A stretch of 64,000 bases of DNA, taken from Squalus acanthias (taxonomy: Eukaryota). The translations under genes were made by a program, and so were the position numbers. How positions within the stretch are numbered: the stretch's first letter is position 1; the number at the start of each line of letters is the position of its first letter. Of this stretch, positions 3,966 through 60,900 are shown piece after piece. Where the stretch lies: NCBI GenBank assembly GCA_030390025.1, contig CM059432.1, forward strand, positions 64,730,001 to 64,794,000, read 5' to 3'. Below the pieces are notes generated by a model, which was not told the DNA's origin, ran no database searches, and saw only the letters and a list, made by a program, of their open reading frames with translations.

Positions 3966-5970
3966 TCATAGAAACATAGAACATAGAAAAATAGGAGCAG
4001 GAGTAGGCCATTCTGCCCTTCGAGCCTGCTCCGCCATTCAATATGATCATGGCTGATCCTCTATCTCAATACCATATTCCTGCTCTCTCCCCATACCCCT
4101 TGATGCCTTTTGCATCTAGAAATCTCTATCTCCTTCTTAAATATATTCAGTGACTTGGCCTCCACAGCCTTCTGTGGTAGAGAATTCCACAGGTTCACCA
4201 CCCTCTGAGTGAAGAAATTACTCCTCATCTCAGTCCTATATATCCTACCCCGTATCCTGAGACTGTGACCCCTCGTTCTAGACCCGCCAGCCAGGGGAAA
4301 CATTCTCTCTGCATCCAGTCTGTCTAGCCCTGTCAGAATTTTATACGTTTCAATGAGATCCCCTCTCATTCTTCTAAACTCTACTGAATACAGGCCTAGT
4401 TGACCCAATCTCTCCTCATACGACAGGAATCAGTCTGGTGAACCTTCGCTGCACTCCCTCTATGGCAAGTATATCCTTTCTTAGGTAAGGAGACCAAAAC
4501 TGCACACAATACTCCAGGTGTGGTCTCCAAGGCCCTGTATAACTGCAGTAAGACATCCTTGCTCCTGTACTCAAATCCTCTTGCAATGAAGGCCAACATA
4601 CCATTTGCCTTCCTAACTGCTTGCTGCACCTGCATATTTGCTTTCAGTGACTGGTGTACAAGGACACCCAGGTCCCATTCTACATCAACATTTCCCAATC
4701 TGTCACCATTTAAATTATACTATGCCTTTCTGTTTTTCCTACCAAAGTGGACAACTTCACATTTATCCATGTTATATTGCATCTGCCATGTATTTGCCCA
4801 CTCACTCAACTTGTCTAAATCGCTTTGAAGCCTCTTTGCACCCTCCTCACAGCTCACAATCCCACCTAGTTTCGTGTCGTCAGCAAACTTGAAAATATTA
4901 CATTTGGTTCCCTCATCCAAATCATTGATATATATTGTGAATAGCTGGGGCCCAAGCACTGATCCCTGCGGTATCCCACTAGTCACCACCTGCCACCCTG
5001 AAAAACACCCATTTATTCCTTCTCTCTGTTGCCTGTCTGTTAACCAATTTTCAATCCATGCCAGTATATTACCCCCATTCCCATGTACTTTAATTTTGCA
5101 CACTAACCTCTTATGTGGGACTTTATCAAAGGCCTTCTGAAAATCCAAATACACCACATCTACTGGTTCTCCCTTATCTATTCTACCAGTTACATCCTCA
5201 GAAAACTCCAGTAGGTTTGTCAAACACAATTTCCCTTTCATAAATCCATGTTGACTTTGTCTAATCCCGTTGATATTTTCCAAGTGTCCTGTTATCACAT
5301 CCTTTATAATAGACTCTAGCATTTTCCCTACTACTGATGTTAGGCTAACCAGTCTGTAGTTCCCTGTTTTCTCTCTCCCTCCTTTTTTAAATAGTGGGGT
5401 TACATTTGCCACCCTCCAATCTGCAGGAACTGTTCCATAATCTATAGAATTTTGGAAGATGACAACCAATGCATCCACTATTACCTCTTTTAGTACTCTG
5501 GGATGCAGATTATCAGGCCCTGGGGATTTATCAGCTTTCAGTCCCATTAATTTCTCCAGCACTATTTTTTTACTAATACTAATTTCCTTTAATTCCTCCT
5601 TCTCACTAGACCCTTGGTTCCCTAGCATTTCTGGGAAGTTATTTGTGTCCTCTTCCGTGAAGACGGAACCAAAGTATTTGTTTAATTGCTATGCCATTTC
5701 CTTTTACCCCATTATAAATTCTCCCGTTTCTGACTGTAAGGGACCTACATTTGTCTTCACTAATCTTTTTCTTTTTACATACTTGTAGAAGCTTTTACAG
5801 TCTGCTTTTATGTTCCTTGCAAGTTTACTCTCACACTCTATTTTTCCCCTCTTAATCAATCTCTTGGTCCTTTTTTGCTGAACTCTAAACTGCTCCCAAT
5901 CCTCAGGCTTGCTACTTTTACTGGCAGCTTCATATGACTCCTCTTTGGATCTAATACTATCCTTAATTTC
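3966..5970 (-). mobile_element. CR1 LINE, 5'-truncated, frameshifted RT
   Basis: ORFs 4720-5628 (QGSVLGPQLF, KFADDTKL), 4396-4698 and 4061-4408; CATAGAAA-type tail at the left end. Confidence 0.95.
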
Positions 5971-6084
5971 AGTCAGCTGCCATAAAGAAGGGTGGCTGTC
6001 TGTACTTGATGTGTCGTCAATGTGGTTTCCATCATCTTCAGTCTAGGATTTGTTCTTCAATACGCAGTCACCTTGGTTCAAGGT

Positions 6085-7056
6085 GATCGCGAGGGGAGCT
6101 CGGGGCCAGGAATCGTGAGTGAATCTCGGGGCCAGGAATCGTGAGTGAAGCTCGGGGCCAGAGATCGTGAGGGAAACTCGGGGCCAGGAATCGAGAGGGG
6201 AGCTCAGGGCCAGAGATCTCGAGCGGAGCTCGGGGCCAGAGATCGCGAGGGCAGCTCCGGGTCAGAGATCGCGAGGGGAGCTCGGGGCCAGAGATCGCGA
6301 GCGGAGCTCTGGGCCAGAGATCGCAAGGGGAGCTCGGGGCCAGAGATCGCGACGGGAGCTCGGGGCCAGGGATCGTGAGTGAAGCTCGGGGCCAGAGATC
6401 GCGAGGGGAGCTCGGGGCCAGAGATCGCGAGGGGAGCTCGGGGCCAGAGATCGCGAGGGGTGCTCGGGGCCAGAGATCGCGAGGGGAGCTCGGGGCCAGA
6501 GATCGCGAGGGGAGCTCAGGGCCAGAGATGGCGAGGGGAGCTCAGGGCCAGAGATGTCGAGGGGAGCTCGGGGCCAGGGATCACGAGCGGAGCTCGGGGC
6601 CACAGATCGCGAGGGGAGCTCGGGGCCAGGAATCACGAGGGGAGCTCGGGGCCAGAGATCGCGAGGGGTGCTCGGGGCCAGAGATCGCGAGTGGAGCTCG
6701 GGGCCAGCGATCGCGAGGGGAGCTCGGGGCCAGAGATCGCGAGGGGTGCTCGGGGCCAGAGATCGCGAGGGGAGCTCGGGGCCAGCGATCACGAGGGGTG
6801 CTCGGGGCCAGAGATCGCGAGGGGAGCTCGGGGCCAGCGATCATGAGGGGTGCTCGGGGCCAGAGATCGCGAGGGGAGCTCGGGGCCAGAGATCGCGAGG
6901 GGAGCTCTGGGCCAGAGAGTGCGAGGAGAGCTCGGGGCCAGAGATCGCGAGCGGAGCTCGGGGCCAGCGATCGCGAGGAGAGCTCGGGGCCAGAGATCGC
7001 GAGTGGAGCTCGGGGCCAGAGATCGCGAGGGGAGCTCCGGGCCAGCGATCGCGAGG
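6085..7056. repeat. GC-rich minisatellite, 26-bp unit GAGATCGCGAGGGGAGCTCGGGGCCA, about 37 copies
   Basis: Direct reading; the ORF translations repeat with a 26-aa period (three units). Confidence 0.97.
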
Positions 7057-7156
7057 CTCACAGGTACAAATACAAAAAAACGATGGGTTCCACTAACCTC
7101 TCCCCCGGTTAACCTTCACCAGAATATTAGTGCTACTTTGATCTTGTGAAAGACAA

Positions 7157-23901: not shown

Positions 23902-24562
23902 GGGGGAAAACTTGAGTTGCGCCCCCTTTGGGGCGCTAACTTGGCCGGGGTGTTAACCCCAAAAAATTAGCGCCCCCACGGCCGAAATTCATCGGTAGCG
24001 CCCCAAGAGGAAAGCGGGGCACTACTGGAAGCGCCCCACCGCCCGCTTGGGGCGCTGGGCGCTGTGGCACGTCTTCTTAAAGGGGAGGGGCCTTGCGCAG
24101 TGCAACCCGGGGCCCAGCTGGGTCACCGGGATCGGAGTGCCGGCAAAAGAGCCCGGCACTCAAGAGAAGTGCCGGGCTCATGGAGCGCAGCCGACACTCC
24201 GTGGGGGTGGGGGGGGGGGCGGGTGCTCAGGAGGCCATGGACGACAACAGAGGCAAGTGCTGGCAGGCAGCCAGCAACAAAAATGGTCGCCCAGCACCTC
24301 GCCTTTAATTGGCGCAGCCCCGGCCGCGGGTAGGCCCCTTGACCCCGTCAGACATAGTGTCCGGCAGTAAGTCAGGGGGCGCTACTGAAGATCATGGCTG
24401 GGGCACGAGCGGGGCGCTGCGCACGGCGATGACGTCATCGCCAGCGGGGCAGTGCTGCGGGGCGCTAACGGTTACCGCCGCTGCTAACCTCCCGCTGAAT
24501 TTTGCAGGAGGCGTTGGTGGCGCTGCACCCGGGCGCTAGTTGCACCGCCAAATTTTTCCCCC
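23902..24562. mobile_element. Harbinger-type MITE related to the 54433 and 57167 copies
   Basis: Ends GGGGGAAAA / TTTTTCCCCC; flanks ATA/AAA; shared internal sequence (AAAAGAGCCCGGCACTCAAGAGAAGTGCCGGGCTC). Confidence 0.85.
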
Positions 24563-31954: not shown

Positions 31955-34900
31955 AACATTCTCCTTTCACATGATAGCTTTTGCAGAATCAGCACCTTCT
32001 CTCAGGACTCCTTTGGCACCACGCTCCATTCAGCACCTCCTCATCCTGCTTGCATCTTGCTTCTTCTCCCTCTCAACATATGCACTACCATCACAAGTCC
32101 CACACATCTGTACTCTCCATTTATGCCAACTAGCAGGAGGTCCTCTCCACAAGTCTCCCACACAATGTAGAGGGAGATAGCCGACCATGTCATGAGCAGC
32201 ACTGTGGTCCCCAGGACCTACACCCACAGGAAGAAGTTTAACGACCTCACATGGGTGGTCAGGGTGAGTGAAGGCTTCAACAAATGCTACGTACCACAGG
32301 CTTCACACACTGCTCAATGCACCACATCCCTAGCACTCACCCACCAACAATCTCTACCTAGCAACACTCGCACCCACATCTCACACCTTGCACACAATGA
32401 CAGCTATTCAACTATGGCAGGCACATCACCTAAACACATTGCATCACACTCACTCACACAATTTCCTTTCTGTTGTAAGCCAAGGTGGCTCACAATCGAG
32501 GGAGCAGGCAGCGGACAGGCAGGGGCCAAGCCCACATTGAACAGCTGAGCCAGCTGGAGAGTCGAGTGCTGGAGATCTTTGGGCACCACGTCTTGGGCAC
32601 CGTGGCCACCAGCGATGTTGACCCCCTTGGGGACAACAACGGTATGTTCATTCCTACTCGTTCTTCTCACATCCTACTTCCCCGTCAGCCCACAATCTTT
32701 TCTCACTTTCAAGCTACTCATGCATTTCTGCCTTCCTGCCCCCCTCCTCTCACCATAACCTGACTCTTGTGCCTTTCTGCTTTCACATAATGAGCAAGCA
32801 CCTGAGCAGCCTTTCCCTGAGGGCACTGCAGAGAGCGAGGCGGGGAGAAGAGGAGGAGGAGGAAGAAGACACCGCGTCACTGCATCCGTCACTCACAGAC
32901 ACCAGCTCAGATACTGACACTACATGTTCTTTAGAGGCTAGTGTAGTAGCGGGATCTGCACAATGTGAGGTACCGGGCACGAGCGGGCTGCAGCAAGGCC
33001 AGGGGGAAAGGGTAGCTCGGGGGCCAGCTCCCCTGAGGGCGGGTTCGCGTGCGAGTTCTGTTCCACAGGACTCAGATGAGGACCTCGATGGGGAGGCCTT
33101 CAGAAAAAGGGTGTTGGGCATGCACACAGAAATGACAGATGCAATGGCAAGGCTGCCAGAGAGCCTCTCGGCAATGAGAAGGAGCTTCGAAGAGTCTGTC
33201 TCCAACATTGCACAAGGCTCTGCGCAGAGCAGGGAGCCCATCATTTCCAGTCTGCAAATGATGGTACACTCCCAGAGAGATCGTGGCGACCCAGACGTGA
33301 TGGCGCGCATGATGAGCGATGTCGCAGCTTCCATTGCAGCACAGGCGGAAGCGACCCAACGTCTTAATGCTGTAGCGGAAGCTTTGGCTGCTCTCACGCA
33401 GTCTCTGCTTGAAGCCACCCAAGCTCAGACTGCTGCCATCATGGCCAGGTTTACCACTGTTGACTGGGGCTTTCACGGTGTCGCAGCAGGTGAGCAATCT
33501 GTGCTCCAACAGATTGCTAGGAATATTGAGGTGCCGCCCCGGGGGGGAGTGGCAGTGGGGTTGTGGAGCAGGAATCTGCTGTCTCTCTCAGGATGAGAGC
33601 ATTCCTGCTCCCACCACTGCCACTCCACTATTGCTCTTGTTGCTGCCTGTCTTACAGCCAGCTCAGACTGCTGCCGCTCAGGCCAAGGTGGTGCAGAGCT
33701 GGTCGAGGTCGTCCTGCAAGGCCATCTGAAGTCTCCCGCACGGAAACTCAGCAGCCTTCCACCAGCTGTGCTGCAGCCACTGGGGGCGCACTGCGTAGGA
33801 GCACTAGAGTAGGAAAAGGCACACAAGCGACAGGCACTAAGGGATTGCACAAGGGTGATTAGTTAATAGTATTGATGTAATATGTGTGATATGTGTATAG
33901 ATAAATTTATTAATTATGTTTGGAATCTTTTGTGGTGTCTCTCATTTCAGCTTTGCGCCCAGGAGGATGCTGTGATATGGCCTGCGACAGGGATTGTATG
34001 ATGAGAATGTGGTGAGCAACGGGGATCTGGGGTTTCATTCATTCGAATCGGAGTCTGATGAGCTGGTCACGGACCACCTGTCCGGAAGACCGATTGTCTG
34101 GCTGCCTCCTCCCTCCCACCTGTTCCTCGTCCTCCTGCTCCTCGTCCTCCTGCTCCTCATCCTCCTCCTGAGGTGGTCCCGTAATCCCTGGTGGTAAGGG
34201 CTGCGCCCTCATGATGGCCAAGTTGTGGAGCATGCAGCAGACCATCACGAAATGGGACTCCCGCTCTGGCGAGTACTGGAGGGTTCCTCCCGAGCAGTCA
34301 AGGCAGCGGAACTGTTGCTTCAGTAGGCCGATGATCTGCTCGATGATGTTCCTGGTGGCAGCATGGCTCTCATTATATGAGTGCTGGGCAGGAGTGTTGG
34401 GGTTGTGGAGGGGAGTCATGAGCCTGGTGGAGAGCGGATAGCCCTTGACTCTGAGCAGCCACCCTCGAGCTTGACGTGCTGGCTGGAAGAGTGCTGGCAC
34501 ACCGGTCTGGCGCAGGAAGAAGGCATCGTGGCTGCTGCCAGGATAGTGAGCATTAACATTAAGTGAGTGATAGCCTTTGCGGTTACGGAAGATCTCAGGA
34601 TTGTTATGCGGTGCCCGCAAAGTCACATGGGTCCAGTTGATGGCGCCCTGCACCATAGGGAAGCCCACTATTCTGGCAAAGCCACATGCACGCTCACCTT
34701 GCTTCTCTCTGTTGATCGGGAAGTCAATATAGTCCCAGTGTAGAGCGCCTCAGTGACCTCCCGGATGCAGCGATGGAAGGCGAACTGGGAGATGTTAGCT
34801 ATGTCTCCTGTTGCAGACTGAAAGGATCCGCTGGCGAAGAAATTGAGGGCCACGGTGACCTTGACTGCCACTGAGAGAGCCGTGGTCGCCCTGATCTGAA

Positions 34901-36363: not shown

Positions 36364-39247
36364 ATGGTCAGATTTTCTTCTCTGAGGTTGTCTCACCTTA
36401 TAGTTCACTGGGCCCACCACCTCTATAACCTCATAAAAGGCCCCTGCCACCGCGCAAAGAGCTTGCTTTCAGTTGTGGAGACAAGGACCATAACACGGTC
36501 GCCTGGTCAGAACCTTCTGACCTCAGCCTCTATTATACTGGGCTCTCTGGTTTTCCAGCATCTTCTCTAAATGAGCTCTCACTATGGGTGTAACTGGCTC
36601 GATCTGCTCCCTCATCTTCACTGTGTGCTCAATAATATTTTTGGAGTAACAGTTTTGTTCCTCCCATTCCTCTTCAGCAATGTCAAGGATTCCACGAGGC
36701 TGTCGCCCATACAGCAGCTCAAATGCGGAAAACCCTGTAGAGGGCTGGGGCACCTCCCTAACTGCATACATGAGATACGGCAGTAGGGTATCCCAGTTTT
36801 CCCATCCTTATCCAGAACCTTTTTTAGCATACCCTTGAGAGTTCTATTGAACCTCTCCACAAGGCCACCTGTTTAAGGATGGTACACAGAGGTCCTTAGA
36901 CTCTTAATGTGGAGCAGGGTACAAAGTTCTTTCATCAGTTTGGACACAAAGGGAGTCCCCTGGTACATTGAGATCTCCTTTGGGATTCCCACCCTGGAGA
37001 ACATCTTCACTAATTCACTTGCTAAGGTTTTAGAGATTGTATTCCTTAGTGGAATCACCTTGGGATATTGCATGGCATAGTCAACGACAACTAAAATATA
37101 CTGGTGTCCTCGTGCTGACTCTCCAGCGGTCCCACTAGGTCCATAGTAATCCTTTTGAAGGGCACCACAATTTATTGGGAGAGAGACTAATGGAGTGTGA
37201 TAATGAGGCCTGGGTCCACACAGTTGACACGCTGCACAGAAGGTACAGAACCGGTGTACTTCTTTATACACCTCTGGCCAGAAGAATCGTCTCAACAGCC
37301 ACTCCAGAGTCTTCTCCGTTCCCAAGTGTCCTCCGAATAGGTGCTTGTGGGCCAAGTGAAGGAAGGTCCGCCTATGTGTCCATGGCACCAGCAATTGCTG
37401 CACTTCCTCCCAATGCCCCCAAGTCACCCTGAATAAAAAGTCATTATTTACTATGTAATACGGCCCAGGACCTTTTGTTTTACCCTCAATGGGATGCCCA
37501 TTTATCACTACTACCTCTTGCTTCACATTTCGTAGGACTGGATCAATTATCTGTTCCCATTGAAAGCCAGAAGTACATATATCTAGTCCCTTGAAATTTA
37601 TCCCAACCTCCCCTGGGTGGTCGACCAGAAGAGCTCCTCTCAACCACCCCGCTTCTACCAGGCCTGGTTCTGTCTCTGGGGCTGGAGAAGCAGAGGGAAT
37701 AGGGTTTTGGTCCCCTACTAAAACTCAAGGCACCTCCACCCTAATTCATCTTGCCTTGCCTTTCCTTCGTTCCCGTTTTGATTTTCTGGGTTTCCCGGAC
37801 CCCTGATACAACTCTAGATCTACAAATGGAAACACTTGAGAGGCTCTCAATCTGCTCCTTTTCTTGTAGGCAGTCTGGATCCCTTCCCTTCCTTTGGATA
37901 AGGGTATTAAACCCCAGTAAATCCCTCCCAGTATTACAGGCTGAGGAAGCTTGGGTACCACCCAGCCTTTACTTCCCAGGCACCTCCCTTCACTTCCACC
38001 TTGACCCGGGTGGTGGGGTAATAAAATACGTCACCATGTACGCACTTTATTAACATTTTATCCACATGGTCTAGATCTGAAGACCATACTAGAGTCAAGG
38101 AAACCAGGGTTACTGCACTCTGAGTCAGTAAGGGCCTTCACCTCCTTTCCATTAACCTTTATTGTTTCTAGGAAGGGGTGACCCCCCTCCACATGGCTCA
38201 CAAGCTACACTACCCAACCTGGGTAATCCCTGGTGGCATCCCCTGATTCCCCGAGGCTGCATTGCATGGGTTCCTTCTAGTTTGGGCAGTGTGCTGCTAC
38301 ATGCCACTCATCATACCAGTACATTTTCCCTGGTTTCCTGTTTACCCCAGGATTTGAAGTTATATGGGCCGACCCCATAAGTCCCTTCACCGCTCTTCAG
38401 CACCCCTTACATGTTTTTCAGCCCAGGATCTAGTCCCATTCTTTAGACTCGGGGGTTGTCTAGGATTGCGTGGCCTGGAGAATGTCAGGGATCTGACCAT
38501 GTCCTCTGCAGCGAGTTGTCTTTCCACCAGCGCAATCAACTTTTGAGAATTGGCCGGGGTCCCTTGACCTACTCATTTTGTATTCTGGGGTGGAAGGGCT
38601 CGTAGATAGCGGTCCATTACCAGCAGCCCCACAATCCTGGCAGGGAGTTGTCAGGTTGAAGCCACCGAATGGCCATATGTATCAGTTTAAACTTTTGAGA
38701 GCAGGGTGCCTTGCCCTCCTGATAGGTCCAGGCATTGAACCTCTGAGCCCAAACCATTAAGGTGACGCCAGCCCCCAACTGTGGGTAGTTGGCCGCCTCC
38801 TATGGCTCCAGGTCAAAGCAGGCCTTCTGAGCATAGTCCACTAAGAGTGTCACAATGCCAGCCCATTGGTCTTGTGGTCACCTCTCGCGCTCAACACATC
38901 TTTCAAAGGCCAAGAGCTATGTCTCCACATCGTCCTCTGGAGTCATTTTCTGCAGCATTAGACTGGCTCGGATAGGTTGGATGGGGAATTCCGGCCCTTC
39001 CATCCAGCTCTACTGCTGTTTCAACTCAGTGATCTCAACTGACTCTGGGCAATCTGGTATTTGGGTGATCGCCTGTGGGCCTCAAGGATCTGAGTGGTCC
39101 TCTTGTGCATGCTGGTGGGCCTCTTGTGCGGCCCCGTGGACCCCTTGCAGAGCTCATATGGCCCGCACCAGTTCTCTAAACATTTCCTCCATTGGGGTTG
39201 GTCTCTTTATTTCTCCATTAGAGACTCAGATCCTACTTCTGACATCA
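36364..39247 (-). mobile_element. Gmr1-like Gypsy retrotransposon internal region: PBS, gag, protease, integrase (RT/RNase H missing)
   Basis: Minus strand: PBS-like TGATGTCAGAAGTAGGAT; gag QKMTPEDDVET*LLAFER..QWAG; protease VNGKEVKALTDSE; integrase HLGTEKT, YILVVVDYA, VERFNRTLK, STGFSAFELLYGRQPRG. No RT between protease and integrase. Confidence 0.85.
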
Positions 39248-52700: not shown

Positions 52701-54432
52701 AAATTAATGGGACTAAAAGTCGATAAATCCCAAGGACCGGATGATCTACATCCTAGGGTTTTGAAAGAGGTGGCCATTGGAATAGTGGACGCATTGGTTG
52801 TCATCTTCCAAAATTCTATAGATTCTGGAACGGTTCCTGCAGATTGGAGGATAGCAAATGTAACCCCGCTATTTAAGAAAGGAGGGAGAGAGAAAGCAGG
52901 GAACTACAGACCTATTAGCCTCACATCAGTAGTTGGGAAAATGCTGGAATCTATTATAAAGGATGCAATAACTGGGCACTTAGAAACTAATAGTAAGATT
53001 GGGCAGAGTCAACATGGATTTATGAAAGGGAAATCCTGTTTGACAAACCTATTGGAGTTCTTTGAGGATGTAACTAGTGGAGTAGACAAAGGGGAACCGG
53101 TAGATGTGGTGTATCTGGATTTTCAGAAGGCCTTCGATAAGGTCCCACACAAGAGGTTGATGAACATAATTAGGGCACATGGAATTGGGGGTAATATACT
53201 AGCATAGATTGAGAATTGGTTAACAGACAGAAAACAAAGAGTAGGGATAAAGGATGGCAGGCTGTGACTAGTGGGGTACCACAAGGATCAGTGCTTGGGC
53301 CCCAGCTAGTCACAATCTATATCAATGATTTGGATGAGGGGACTGCTGATGATACAAAGCTAGGTGGCAGTGTCAGTTGCGAAGAGGATGTGAAGAGGCT
53401 TCAAGGGGATCTCGACAGGCTCAGTGAGTGGGCGAGAACATGGCAGATGGAATATAATGTGGATAAATGTGAAGTTATCCACTTTGGTAGAAAAAACAGA
53501 AAGGCAGAGTATTTCCTAAATGGTGTACGATTGGGGAATGCAGATGCTCAAAGGGACCTGGGTGTCCTTGTACATGAGTCACTGAAAGTGAATGTGCAGG
53601 TGCAGCAAGCCATTAGGAAGGCAAATGGTATGCTGGCCTTCATTACAAGAGGATTTGAGTACAGGATTAAAGAAGTCTTACTCCAATTATATAGGGCCTT
53701 TGTGGTAACACAATACAGCTTCCTGTGACTCGAACTTTATTGCATCACTTCCTGTGATTAGTCCAGGATAAATACTGGGCTGATCAGTTGGATCCTGGAG
53801 AGGCATAGAGTAAGACCTCTTTTGTATGTAGCACCTTTTTAGTTGATTAAAGCTTACTTTAAGTTCACCACGCGTAAGGCTCATTCTTACGACAATTTAA
53901 TCAACTTTGGAAAACTTCGCACTCAAACTTTTTGGACGAACTCGGAACTAAGGATCCAGGGAATCACCCATCATGGAAAACATCCTTAAACCATCGCGTC
54001 TTGACTTGGACCCAAACACCCCAGCAGCCGGTAAGGTGTGGAAACACTGGTATCGCACGTTTGACAATTTTCTTGAATATTGTAAGGCTGATGATAACTC
54101 AAAGTTGCGGATACTCATCAACTGTGTCACCCCGAATTTATTTCAGTATGTGGAGAAATGGGACAGTCACGAGGAGGCAATTCGGACGCTTAAGAGACGA
54201 TATACTAAGACACCGAATGAGGTCTATGCCAGACATCTACTAGCTACAGCCCAACAAGGGCCGGAGGAATCCATTGATAAATTCCTCCAAGAGCTTCGCA
54301 GACTTAGTATGGACTGTGACTTTCGGGTGGCCTCAGCTGAGCTGTACCGTGAAGAAATGATCCGTGATGCTTTCATCTGCGGGCTTGCCTCCCCATTTAT
54401 ACGCCAGCGTCTACTGGAAAGTAAGACACTTG

Positions 54433-55175
54433 GGGGTAAAAATTGAGTCGCGCCCCATTTGGGGCGCTAACCTCGCCGGGGTGCGACTTTTAGCGCCCCG
54501 AAAAAATTAGCGGCCCCGCGCCGGAACTTCAGTGGTTGCGCCCCAAGAGGGAAGCGGGGCGCTACTGGAAGCACCCCGCATCCCTCTTGGGGCGCTGCGA
54601 GTGAATATCCTGGCGCTACGTGCCGCAGTATTGCAGGCCTTCCTCCCCTTCTTAAAGGGGAGGGACCCTGCGCAGCGCGAACCGGGGCCCAGCTGGGCCC
54701 CCAGGGATCGGGAGTGCCGGCAAAAGAGCCCGGCACTCAAGAGAAGTGCCGGGCTCTTGGAGCGCAGCCGGCACTTCACGGTGGGGGGGCTTCACGGGGG
54801 CCGGGGACAGCAACGGGGGCAGGTGCTGGCAGGCGGCCAGCAACAAAAATGGCCGCCTGCCACCTCCCCTTTAAATATCGCCGCCCCGGCCGCACGTACG
54901 CCTCCCTGAACCCGTCGGACATAGCGTCTGGCGGTAAATCAGGGGGCGCGACTGAAGATCACGGCCGGGGCGCGAGCGGGGTGCTGCGCACGGCGATGAC
55001 GTCATCGTCGGCGGCGCAGCGCCACAGGGCGCTACCGGCTGCCGCCGCCGCTAACCTCCCACTAAATTTTTCGGGAGGCGTGGGCGGCGCTGCGCCCGGG
55101 CGTTAGCTGCTTTACGCCCCATTAGCGCCCTCTTAAGGCGCTAACGGGAGGCGCAAGCAGCTGAATTTTTCCCCC
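54433..55175. mobile_element. Harbinger-type MITE, 743 bp, inserted in gag
   Basis: Ends GGGGTAAAAATT / AATTTTTCCCCC; TSD TTG; removal restores ESKTL-ELQRAY. Confidence 0.93.
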
Positions 55176-55409
55176 TTGAGCTTCAGAGAGCTTATGACAT
55201 GGCTTGCTCTCTAGATCTGGCAAAAAGAAATGCAGACTTTTATACAGTGCCCAGACCTCGGTCTACTGCCTTAACTACAGTCAGGCAATTTAAGAGGCCA
55301 CAGGTGAACTCTATTAGGGAGGTCTTTATCCCTGACGATCAATCTGATGACTTCACTGATGAAGAGGATGATGACCCCACTGTGGCAGCCTCTTGGCAAT
55401 CTAAGAAAT

Positions 55410-55874
55410 AGAAACATAGAAACATAGAAACATAGAATCTAGGAGCAGGAGTAGGCCATTTGGCCCGTCGAGCCTGCTCCACCATTCAATACGATCATGG
55501 CTGATCATCCAAATCCAATACCCTGTCCCTGCTTTAATCCCCACAGTACACACATCCCACCCTACCCCCGTAACCCCACGTATTTAATTCCCCCTAACAT
55601 ATCCCATCCTATCCCCATAACCCCACATATTTAATCCCCCCCTAACACTAAGGGTCAATTTATCATAGCCAAATCAACCTAACCCGCACATTTTTGGACT
55701 GTGGGAGGAAACCGGAGCACCCGGAGGAAACCCACGCAGACACGGGGAGAATGTGCAAACTCCACACAGACAGTCACCCGAGGTCAGATTCGAACCCGGG
55801 TCCCTGGCGCTGTGAGGCACCAGTGCTAACCACTATGCCACCGTGTTGCCCTTTATGCCACCGTGTTGCCCTTT
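55410..55874 (-). mobile_element. HE1-like V-SINE (tRNA head, V domain, CR1-derived 3' tail) inserted in gag
   Basis: Minus-strand A box GTGGCATAGTGG and B box GGTTCGAATC; V-domain GCGTGGGTTTCCTCCGGGTGCTCCGGTTTCCTCCCACA; CR1-like tail with CATAGAAA repeats. Confidence 0.88.
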
Positions 55875-57166
55875 TGCTTCTTTTGTGGTGATGAGTTCCA
55901 CCCTCGGAAATTCTGCCCTGCTCGCAATGCGTTTTGCAGTCATTGCAACAAAAAGGGTCATTTTGCAAAGGTTTGCCTATCAAGAGCCTCTACGAGGGCT
56001 TATCAAGCTAAGTCCTACCGAACTGCCCGGTAAGGGCCTATCAAGATGTTCCGGCTAAAATCTATCGTGCTTCCTCTCGAAGAAACACACCTAGAGTTTC
56101 AGCCACTCTTTGTGCAATGACACCAATTACAGCTGCTTGTCCTCAGAACCTATTCCATGCAGCTACAAAAGCATCAATTAATGGACATACTTTAGATGCC
56201 TTAATTGACTCAGGTAGCACTGATCGTTTCATTAGGGAACAGATTGTTGCAGAGTTAAAGCTACATGTTTTCCCATCGGACCAGGCAGTTGCGATGGCTC
56301 AGTCATCACTTAATACCAGAATTTCTGGCTTTTGTATGGTTGAAATAACACTTAATGGTCGCAGGTATCCCTCCACCCGGCTTTCGGTGCTCAAGGACTT
56401 ATGTAGTGATCTTATCTTAGGGCTGGATTTTCAAAAGCAGCATAAGAAGCTCACCATTGAGTTCGGCGGATCCAAACCTGAACTCACTATTTCTAATATA
56501 CTACCTCGATTACCATTCTGTGCATTGTCAGCAGCTTCACTGGATGAACCCTCACTGTTTTCCAGTATCCTTCCTCGATGCAAACCGATTATAACAAAGT
56601 CACGACGTTTCAGTCAGGAAGACCAGTCTTTTATTACGGCTGAGATTTCTCGGCTTTTAGCAGAGGATATCATCGAGCCTTGTTCGTCGCCATGGCGCGC
56701 CCAGGTCGTTATTGTTAAGAACCCTCTACAACCTCACAAGAAACGGCTGTGAATTGACTATTCACAGACCATCAATCAATATACGGACTTGGACGCATAC
56801 CCATTGCCGCGCATCGATGATATGGTTAATAAATTGGCTGAGTACACGGTGTTCTCAACATATGATCTAAAAAGTGCCTATCATCAGGTACCCTTGAAGG
56901 TCTCAGACAAGCAGTATACGGCCTTTGAAGCCAATGGACGGCTGTATCAATTTCGTCGCCTCCCCTTTGGGGTCACTAATGGAGTGGCTGTCTTCCAGCG
57001 AGCAATGGATGACCTGGTCAAACAGGAAGACTTGAAGGATACGTTTCCTTATCTGGACAATATTACTGTCGCAGGTCGCAATCAACGGGAACATGACGCC
57101 AATCTCCAACGATTTTGGGACGCACTCCAGCACCGCAATTTGACATTAAATGCGGCTAAATCCATT

Positions 57167-57909
57167 GGGGGAAAAATTCAGCTGCTTGCGCCTCCCGTTA
57201 GCGCCTTAAGAGGGCGCTAATGGGGCGTAAAGCAGCTAACGCCCGGGCGCAGCGCCGCCCACGCCTCCCGAAAAATTTAGTGGGAGGTTAGCGGCGGCGG
57301 CAGCCGGTAGCGCCCTGTGGCGCTGCGCCGCCGGCGATGACGTCATCGCCGTGCGCAGCACCCCGCTCGCGCCCCGGCCGTGATCTTCAGTCGCGCCCCC
57401 TGATTTACCGCCAGACGCTATGTCCGACGGGTTCAGGGAGGCGTACGTGCGGCCGGGGCGGCGATATTTAAAGGGGAGGTGGCAGGCGGCCATTTTTGTT
57501 GCTGGCCGCCTGCCAGCACCTGCCCCCGTTGCTGTCCCCGGCCCCCGTGAAGCCCCCCCACCGTGAAGTGCCGGCTGCGCTCCAAGAGCCCGGCACTTCT
57601 CTTGAGTGCCGGGCTCTTTTGCCGGCACTCCCGATCCCTGGGGGCCCAGCTGGGCCCCGGTTCGCGCTGCGCAGGGTCCCTCCCCTTTAAGAAGGGGAGG
57701 AAGGCCTGCAATACCGCGGCACGTAGCGCCAGGATATTCACTCGCAGCGCCCCAAGAGGGATGCAGGGTGCTTCCAGTAGCGCCCCGCTTCCCTCTTGGG
57801 GCGCAACCACTGAAGTTCCGGCGCAGGGCCGCTAATTTTTTCGGGGCGCTAAAAGTCGCGCCCCGGCGAGGTTAGCGCCCCAAATGGGGCGCGACTCAAT
57901 TTTTACCCC
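57167..57909. mobile_element. Second copy of the 743-bp MITE, inverted, inserted in RT
   Basis: Reverse complement of 54433-55175 with about five substitutions seen; flanks ATT/AAT; removal restores AAKSI-ESQPTINIL. Confidence 0.93.
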
Positions 57910-60900
57910 AATGAGTCACAACCAACCATCAACATCCTTAGCTATTGTGTGGGCAATGGCATCATTAAACCTGACCCTGAAAGGCTTCGCCCACTCCAAG
58001 AACTCCCGCCACCTAAGAATCCGGCCTCCTTGCGCCGGGCCCTCGGCCTGTTTGCATACTATGCTAAATGGATTCCTAACTTCTCGGACCGAATCCAACC
58101 TCTACTGAAGGCCAGCACATTCCCACTAGACACAGCGGCTGTTGCAGCCTTTAACCTCCTGAAAAAACAGTTGGAGAAAGCGACTCTTCACTCCATCGAT
58201 GAGAGTCTTCCTTTTGTCGTTGAGTGTGATGCCTCAGAGGTGGCGATCTCAGCCACTCTGAATCAGGAAGGTCGTCCGGTGGCATTTTTGTCCAGGACTT
58301 TTCAAGGGGCTGAGCTACATTATCCTCCAGTCGAGAAAGAAGCTACAGCCATCATAGAGGCAGTACGGAAGTGGAGTCATCTCCTAGCTCGCCAGCACTT
58401 TACCTTAATCACGGACCAGCGATCGGTCGCCTTCATGCTCGATAATCGAAAACGGACTAAAATTAAAAATAATAAAATCCAGCTTTGGCGGCTGGAATTG
58501 GCCTCTTTTGGTTACACCATCCACTATCGACCTGGCAAGGAGAATGTGGCTCCGGATACCCTCACACGAGCATTCTGCTCCGCCATGGCACCCTCTACGC
58601 TCGTAGACATCCATGATGGGTTGTGTCATCCGGGCGTTACTCGCATGCTACACTTCGTGCGGTCCCGAAATCTCCCATTCTCTACCGGGGATGTAAAGAA
58701 GATGTGCTTGGACTGCAGAGTCTGTGCGGAATTGAAACCTCGGTTTTTCCGCCCCTCGGGTGGTATACTCATACATGCGACCCAGCCAATGCAACGGCTT
58801 AGCATCGATTTTAAGGGGCTGTTGCCCTCTTCAACTCGCAACACTTATCTATTGACCATGGTCGATGAGTATTCCCGTTTTCCGTTTGCCTTTCCCTGCC
58901 CCAATATGCTGACGACCACGGTTATCAGCTGCCTTGAGCAGGTATTTGCTTTCTGTGGCATGGCATCCTATGTTCATTCGGATCGGGGCCCTTCTTTTAT
59001 GTCAGGAGAACTCAAGGCCTATCTCTCGGAACGGGGTATTGCTGCCAGCAAAACGACGCCTTATCATCCGGTCGGGAATGGGCAAGTCGAGCGTTTTAAC
59101 ACTATCATCTGGAATGCGGTACGTCTGGCTTTGAGATCTCGGGGCCTACCCAACCAGCAATGGGAAGCAGTACTTCCAGACGCATTACACTCCACACGGT
59201 CCCTCCTTTCGACCGCCACAAATACGACGCCTCATGAACGGTTCTTCCGATTTCAGCGTCGCTCATCCTATGGGATATCTCTCCCGTCGTGGCTGACTGC
59301 ACCGGGACCAGTGCTACTCCGAAGATATGTCCGGGCGTCTAAGAATGACCCCCTGGTAGATGAGGTTGAGCTCACTGACGTCAACCCTACCTACGCCTAT
59401 ATTCGGTATCCTGACGGTCGGGAATCTACCGTGTCATTGCGGGATCTGGCTCCCTGCCCACCGAAACATAGAGGGACACCAGGGGATGATATTGTACCAG
59501 GCACATCTCTGGGCTCGCCAGGTGCCTCTCATCACGATCTGGATCTGACACCGGCTGGTACCTCACTCCAGCGTGCCAACCTGGGGCAGACTGACTACGA
59601 GCCCGTCGGGGCTCGCACGCGCAGCCACGATCCACCCTGTACCGTACGCTCGGAAACGGATCTGCCACAGCCCTGCCCGACACCCGTTCGGGCACCAGTA
59701 CACAGTCAGGATCGTCCTGACCCCTCACAGAGCGGGCTGGATCACTCGGACTCTGGTCCACGGCCCGCGACGGGTAAACGGGCTAGGGGCCCTCTACCGC
59801 TACGAGAACCCAAACGGGTGCGGCTCTCCCTCGTCCAGCGGCTACGAAATGGAGGGAGAATGTGGTAACACAATACAGCTTCCTGTGACTCGAACTTCAT
59901 CCCGGCCTCCTAAACTTTTGGGGGGGGGAGAATGTGGTAACACAATACAGCTTCCTGTGACTCGAACTTTATTGCATCACTTCCTGTGATTAGTCCAGGA
60001 TAAATACTGGGCTGATCAGTTGGATCCTGGAGAGGCATAGAGTAAGACCTCTTTTGTATGTAGCACCTTTTTAGTTGATTAAAGCTTACTTTAAGTTCAC
60101 CACGCGTAAGGCTCATTCTTACGACAGCCTTGGTGAGACCACACCTGGAGTACTGTGTACAATTTTGGTCTCCTTACCTAAGGAAGGATATACGTGCCTT
60201 AGGGAGTGCAACGAAGGTTCACGAGATTGATTCCTGGGATGGCGGGACTGTCGTATGAGAAGAGGTTGAGTAAACTAGGCCTGTATTCAGAAGAATGAGA
60301 GGGGATCTCATTGAAGCATACAAGATTATTGCAGGGCTTGATAGGATGGATGTTGGGAGAATGTTTCCCTTGGCTGGGGAGTCTAGAACCAAGGGCCACA
60401 ACCTCAAGATAAAGGGTAGGCCATTCAGGACTGAGATGAGAAGAAATTTCTTCACACAGACGGTGGTGAATATTTGGAATTCTCTACCCCAGTGGGTTGT
60501 GGAGGGTCAGTCATTGGGTATATTCAAAACAGAAGTCGATAGATTTCTGACTAGTAAGGGCATCAAGGGATATGGCGATAGGGCCAGTGAATGGAGTTGA
60601 GGCAGAAGATCAGCCATGATCTCATTGAATGGCGGAGCAGGCTCAAAGGGCCGAATGGCCTACTCCTGCTCCTATTTCTTATGTTCTTATGTACGCTGGA
60701 AGTTGCTGTCCGACTTATTCCTTAATAACGGTGAGCGCTGATAGCCTTACCATTATTTCTATCGTAAAATCTGGGCCATTATAATAACAATGAACATCTG
60801 CATGTAAATTATGCCTTGAGTACACTGTGAAATCATATCTACAGATCCATGTGTGATGGCAATGTGAGGTTTACTTCTGTTTGCTGCTCTGATAGAACAC

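Follow-up and report, generated by a model that had tools for sequence, protein, structure and literature searches.

Self-priming, in which reverse transcription starts from the RNA of the element itself and not from a tRNA, has been described for Tf1/sushi retrotransposons of hosts ranging from yeast to vertebrates, and plant Tcn1 and the TAR/Houba lineage of copia elements are predicted to use it, as set out in an excerpt of PMC6317226. In Tf1, a duplex of 11 nt is cut by RNase H between bases 11 and 12 (PMC7175516, in extract). Reference titles in PMC4600332 and PMC7175516 name an inner stem beside the duplex as a Tf1 requirement, and a reference title in PMC6317226 indicates that the Tf1 primer remains on the minus strand, from which the plus strand copies it. 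A sequence-only reading of the locus described here had stated that Tf1-like complementarity is reported among Tf1/sushi chromoviruses, which the excerpt of PMC6317226 bears out. Since self-priming is predicted there for copia TAR elements too, its occurrence outside Tf1/sushi is not new as such. In the open full-text literature, we found no report of self-priming in a non-chromodomain animal Gypsy clade; subscription papers, Repbase entries and bioRxiv supplements were outside the scope of this search. Described Gypsy elements without a chromodomain include Cigr-1 of Ciona intestinalis, which has two CCHC arrays, has lost the GPY/F module, has no env and carries its integrase after RNase H, and the Mag cluster (SURL and C-clade), also with two CCHC arrays (both from the part of PMC2774666 that treats these features).

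The window, which is the whole 64-kb stretch of DNA that was analysed, holds a Gypsy copy at 53701-60126 with 194-nt long terminal repeats (LTRs; 53701-53894 and 59933-60126) that are identical throughout. Its TG...CA LTRs, target-site duplication and polypurine tract (PPT) are those of Ty3/Gypsy elements, and the pol order by Pfam is of the Gypsy type, with gag followed by protease, reverse transcriptase (RT), RNase H and integrase. The features are as follows.

53696-53700, plus strand: left target-site duplication, 5 bp, GCCTT
53701-53894, plus strand: 5' LTR, 194 nt, TG...CA, the same as the 3' LTR
53768-53774, plus strand: TATA-like ATAAATA, putative role, 73 nt upstream of the paired stretch
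53841-53851, plus strand: predicted self-primer, its last six bases (53846-53851) reading ATTAAA, a poly(A)-type hexamer
53852-53864, plus strand: short stem-loop whose first base is the next after the predicted primer end; a stem starting with RCC in most relatives
53873-53891, plus strand: second predicted hairpin, in U5
53896-53906, plus strand: primer-binding position, complement of 53841-53851, with spacer base 53895 after the CA of the LTR
53973-54431, plus strand: gag, 5' part, a weak PF03732 match being among the basis
54432-55175, plus strand: nested insertion, MITE-like (copy 1), non-coding and ending in G/C runs
55176-55409, plus strand: gag, middle part
55410-55852, minus strand: nested insertion that we take to be LINE-tail plus SINE-like sequence, ending in a 20-nt duplication; bounds approximate
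55869-56009, plus strand: double Cys/His zinc knuckle of gag, read in translation and not scored by Pfam
56012-57166, plus strand: protease and RT with YLDN motif; frame change near 56010, in-frame stop at 56750-56752
57167-57909, minus strand: copy 2 of the nested MITE-like insertion, inverted; complementarity to copy 1 is 99%
57922-59868, plus strand: end of RT, RNase H and integrase by Pfam, with no chromodomain match
59861-59897, plus strand: additional copy of the first 37 nt of the LTR, preceded by a purine run of its own
59920-59932, plus strand: polypurine tract, before the 3' LTR
59933-60126, plus strand: 3' LTR
60127-60131, plus strand: right target-site duplication, 5 bp, GCCTT

The element is young yet dead, with a frameshift, a stop codon and three nested insertions, which split gag and RT. 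The two MITE-like copies, each of 743 nt, are 99% alike and lie in opposite orientation in this one young retrotransposon; a related piece of 207 nt is found at 24337-24543 of the window, and a DDE_Tnp_4 (Harbinger-type) frame at 34042-34749. At 59845-59932, ahead of the true PPT and 3' LTR, stand a purine run and a copy of the 37 nt with which the LTR opens, an arrangement that resembles an abortive plus-strand start or a template switch. Elsewhere in the window lie a 26-nt tandem array in about 35 overlapping registers (5981-7150) and, on the minus strand at 36876-37724, a fragment of an unrelated integrase. The repeat content of the window tentatively points to a cartilaginous fish as the host. 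The family of the element is recorded under five organism codes. In three of four sequencing runs we noticed a sister variant of the LTR (window 53743-53896) with 13 differences and one inserted base over about 154 nt, which is unchanged at 53841-53857, and in run X14 one contig closes a 4.2-kb unit without nested insertions.

LTR bases 53841-53851 (AGTTGATTAAA) recur as their exact reverse complement at 53896-53906 (TTTAATCAACT), and a single base (A, 53895) separates the CA end of the 5' LTR from the paired stretch. The sequence-only reading reported the perfect 11-nt complement and the lack of a primer-binding site (PBS) starting with TGG behind the 5' LTR, and both hold: the pairing is exact, TGG is absent after the 5' LTR of the window element, and none of the 18 families described below has TGG in the first bases after the LTR. 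In dinucleotide shuffles of the LTR, a match of at least 11 nt starting 0-4 nt past the LTR arose in 10 of 20,000. The fold of 90 nt of the window gave z = -2.4, with 4 of 200 shuffles equally good. ARAGORN found no tRNA genes in the 64-kb window. No Rfam family lay over the LTR or PBS of the element at E values up to 1; the Rfam matches within 53650-56000 were confined to a nested insertion and were far under gathering scores.

We looked for relatives in metagenome contigs, where at least 313 stretches were confirmed and at least 80 loci kept; among viral contigs, none of 32 pattern matches was confirmed. Sufficient upstream DNA was available for 29 gag starts in 28 metagenome loci, which with the window gave 30 gag-anchored sites. 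The site rule was set from the window (CA, one base, PBS, with the partner 15-100 nt upstream); a lower bound of 25 nt missed loci L009 and L048. L010, with less than 60 nt upstream, was omitted from duplex scoring. A score of at least 10 was reached at 24 of the 30 sites, window included. One common register is shared by 23 of the 30, and at these sites the score was matched in 0 of 60 shuffles (21 sites) or 1 of 60 (2 sites). They collapse to 18 families, the window and 17 relatives, from which L049 was omitted for its ambiguous top match. Six sites fail (L020, the second site of L040, L051, L054, L059 and L066); judged by eye and after the fact, these are truncated or decayed copies. That CA is the LTR end is backed by direct repeats, within one chance base, in L002, L004, L006-L008, L026, L039, L040, L048 and L059 and is inferred at the remaining loci. 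In L049 (1390-1480), where the LTR is about 85 nt long, we noted by eye that CA may be followed by 11 nt of which 10 pair with part of the LTR; that part has G at -10 and lacks a poly(A)-type hexamer. L006 (221-10888) lies within a further LTR element of opposite orientation, which has 482-nt repeats and an RT 25% identical.

The paired letters vary between families while the pairing persists. Fifteen distinct 11-mers occur among the 18 families, and over primer positions -1 to -11 the pairing is Watson-Crick in 194 of the 198 cells. When primers and PBSs were swapped between families, the mean was 147.7 and the maximum 168 pairs of 198, and none of 20,000 swaps reached 194; this test takes the families as independent, ignoring relatedness. 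Because families entered the set of 18 through their duplex score, the total of 194 is partly built in; evidence independent of that choice comes from the constant register, the flanking letters and the changes seen on both sides. In all 18 families, a single base separates the CA of the LTR from the end of the duplex. The primer end is A in 17 and AAA in 16, followed by R (18/18), C (17/18) and C (15/18), reading R-C-C-T in most, and G stands at primer position -10 in every family. Two-sided changes are seen at positions -4 to -9 and -11 to -13. Pairing at -12 to -15 holds in 49 of 72 cells, compared with 32.7 in the swap control (maximum 47), and a start fixed at -11 does not explain this excess. 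The duplex is thus 10-19 nt long with its 3' end fixed, reaching 15-19 nt in six families. A stem follows directly after the primer end: summed over families it has 75 pairs, where shuffles had a mean of 53 and 1 of 2,000 was as high; in 4 of the 18 families it has only 2-3 pairs. In L004, L005 and L046 (around 5917-6001), pairing over 19 nt with a single mismatch extends into the start codon of gag and takes in its first bases, so that the duplex could also gate translation.

Covariation is also seen within a 98%-identical family, where L006 and L026 differ at 6 of 532 columns and two of the six differences are matched, G to T in both LTRs and C to A in the PBS. L005, by comparison, has both LTRs changed at position -2 and an unmatched PBS, as would be expected of an intermediate in transfer from LTR to PBS. 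Compensatory changes across related elements, named as a check in the sequence-only reading, were therefore found, in 18 families with 15 11-mers and in the matched L006 change, and the pairing on which that reading depended is conserved in relatives at 23 of 30 sites in one register.

The duplex is probably the self-primer of the window element and of its clade, with no tRNA involved. By this reading, the 5' part of the RNA would fold onto the primer-binding site through the LTR/PBS duplex. By analogy with Tf1, the RNase H of the element would cut after the conserved AAA and before the RCC stem, reverse transcription would start from the cut 3' end without a tRNA, and the plus strand would copy the primer into a new PBS. 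Such copying would explain the matched LTR and PBS changes: a change in the LTR would pass to the PBS one cycle later, which fits L005 and L006. The geometry fits as well, because the fixed end of the duplex is where minus-strand synthesis must begin to yield an LTR end of CA plus one base. The claim that the element self-primes thus stands as to its signature (complementarity, register, covariation and lack of TGG), while priming itself is argued from the Tf1 analogy. Least certain is the transcript start, which the sequence-only reading put near 53841 and which we predict at 53841 or up to about 8 nt upstream; for and against this start we see the balance as about even. Against it, a TATA-like motif 24-31 nt upstream is seen in only 2 of the 18 families. 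Matched changes would also result if selection acted on the duplex for any function, and other readings have to be weighed.

The strongest of these, possible if less probable, keeps self-priming and departs from the Tf1 geometry, and so is a sub-case of self-priming and not a contradiction of it. Transcription would start well upstream, with the duplex inside R and a long capped primer, or the primer would be the 3' copy of R ending at AAA. A duplex spanning 10-19 nt from a fixed 3' end is in its favour, as are the TATA-like motif far upstream in the window and the AAA primer end of 16 families. It has difficulty with the invariant G at -10, which lies in a T-rich pyrimidine-to-purine context that presumably resembles an initiator motif, while its neighbours covary freely. 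It also sits poorly with L038, where 44 nt of LTR lie upstream of -11 with TATATA at -24 to -28. For the version with the 3' copy, there would be no R overlap for the first strand transfer.

It is unlikely that the duplex serves to mask a poly(A) signal and nothing else, with a start at about 53795-53800 after the TATA-like motif, the hexamer of the 5' LTR hidden and another primer in use. A canonical hexamer does end exactly at the primer 3' end in 9 of the 18 families, window included, and in 8 of those 9 it is the sole canonical one from -20 to the LTR end. The ATAAATA of the window, 73 nt upstream of the paired stretch, and the pairing that runs past -11 would suit such a role too. The other nine families have no canonical hexamer in the duplex, however, and L002 and L003 carry one downstream, outside it. 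Masking has no need for a duplex end one base after CA, as found in 18 of 18 families, and with TGG in none of them it leaves no primer. With the hexamer at the primer end in half of the families and elsewhere or absent in the others, masking is a plausible second role and a poor sole one, and it can operate alongside self-priming.

Half-tRNA primers are known in copia lineages (PMC6317226, in the excerpt cited above), and a host RNA, be it a half tRNA, an internal tRNA fragment or another small RNA, could in principle prime here, the LTR match being a by-product. A host primer would keep the PBS constant, whereas each of the 15 PBS 11-mers in the 18 families tracks its own LTR, even within the 98%-identical family, which together with the empty Rfam search over LTR and PBS makes this reading very improbable. 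Chance complementarity, which the AT-rich arm and a fold matched by 4 of 200 shuffles might suggest, is refuted by the relatives, with 23 of 30 sites in one register, besides the 10 in 20,000 shuffles for the window alone, and its probability is negligible.

Self-priming as the preferred reading raises the question of lineage. A search with the RNase H-integrase (RH-IN) region found 896 proteins among 8,000 scored candidates. The best 120 of these 896 are 55-80% identical; most are single frames some 1,200 residues long, and the named hosts are Palaemon, Clavelina, Trichuris and Caligus. Cigr-1 is likewise a single frame of about 1,200 codons. The sequence-only reading saw no evident chromodomain, and Pfam agrees, with no match to a chromodomain (PF00385) or SH3_Tf2-1 in the RH-IN frame of the window; neither is present among the precomputed domains of the best 120 of the 896 homologues. 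PF24626 was found neither in the window nor in those 120, and 0 of the 120 listed homologues has GP[YF] of the GPY/F module in the last 260 residues. Two zinc knuckles are present in 100 of the 120. The earlier description of a Mag-like double zinc knuckle is right as to the two Cys/His knuckles at 55869-56009, and the likeness to Mag is limited to them. The window and 77 of the 88 listed homologues with a recognised motif have an RT motif of the YxDN type, not YxDD; the open full-text literature returned nothing pairing 'YLDN' with a retrotransposon. The best PDB match of the relative P0002 is Ty3 Gag-Pol.

Phylogenetic analysis of RT and RNase H (RT-RH) used 56 rows, with outgroups from a second search that gave 45 long proteins; L039, whose alignment is frameshifted, and most Cordylochernes rows were left out. 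The window clusters with 15 loci and 16 proteins (100/100) on a branch of 0.73, outside the 99/95 group of algal and plant chromovirus-type rows. A long-branch row with a chromodomain, P0153, lies beside the clade in this tree. RT-RH identity of the clade to chromodomain-bearing rows is 27-36%. Forcing the clade together with four chromovirus-type rows, in a test without four long-branch rows, cost 17 log units (p-AU 0.052), so that nesting in chromoviruses is disfavoured yet not rejected. The RT phylogeny that the sequence-only reading had called for therefore sets the clade outside algal and plant chromoviruses and stops short of rejecting nesting, in a tree whose rows include no Tf1, sushi, Mag or Cigr-1. 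Among the families with the signature are those that branch deepest in the clade (L048, L078, L011 and L029) as well as a neighbour of the window (L009). The suggestion that the signature occurs outside the chromodomain-bearing group is supported by covariation in 18 families, by domain content and by the tree. A fuller proposal can be made only tentatively: self-priming may have arisen in a widespread animal Gypsy clade independently of chromoviruses, with one duplex that both makes the primer and hides the poly(A) signal of the 5' LTR, and with its own cleavage code (G at -10, AAA and the RCC stem) read by a YxDN RT.

Like Tf1 and Tf2 of Schizosaccharomyces pombe, Tj1 of S. japonicus, the Tf1/sushi group and plant Tcn1, the window clade has complementarity to the LTR of about 11 nt and no tRNA PBS, and with the Tf1/sushi group it shares the Gypsy-type pol order and an inner stem adjoining the duplex. 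Unlike that group, it has two knuckles and lacks a chromodomain, SH3_Tf2-1 and GPY/F (among the best 120 of 896 homologues), and it lies on a long separate branch in a tree without Tf1/sushi rows. Its duplex, in contrast to that of Tf1, spans 10-19 nt and often includes a poly(A)-type hexamer, self-priming here being predicted from sequence. The copia TAR lineage (Houba and Osr-1) offers a parallel in that self-priming is predicted from LTR/PBS complementarity, according to the portion of PMC6317226 devoted to it; those elements belong to the copia superfamily of plants, whereas the window element has its integrase after RNase H and the hosts are animals. With the Cigr-1 clade, the window clade shares two CCHC arrays, loss of GPY/F, absence of chromodomain and env, and relatives in an ascidian, Clavelina. 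The protease pattern of Cigr-1 is TANG, in one sequence in the extract of PMC2774666, compared with MAQS, MASS and MAST as the commonest in the window clade, the motif positions being unaligned. Identity of the two clades, compared by feature description, is a lead only. The Mag cluster shares two CCHC arrays and the lack of a chromodomain, and SURL differs from the window clade in its protease pattern NANI and its GVI module, as listed in the same extract. Saci2/lennie, also considered, was dropped, having 4-bp duplications and tRNA PBSs (PMC12471100, in the section on these features) against 5 bp and no tRNA PBS here.

The feature is real and clade-wide and likely reflects self-priming, a mechanism that is already known and has been demonstrated in fission yeast, in elements that probably belong to a different lineage. 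Elements such as those described here escape annotation tools that demand a tRNA PBS, and the conserved junction yields exact and cheap predictions for CAGE and in vitro priming. If the reading is true, tRNA-free priming reaches beyond fission-yeast-type chromoviruses and a copia lineage of plants into a large animal Gypsy clade that lacks the chromodomain and is found in crustaceans, ascidians, one nematode, one insect and a vertebrate-like genome. This would point to repeated origins of tRNA-free priming, and such elements would be beyond the reach of tRNA-fragment silencing at the PBS.
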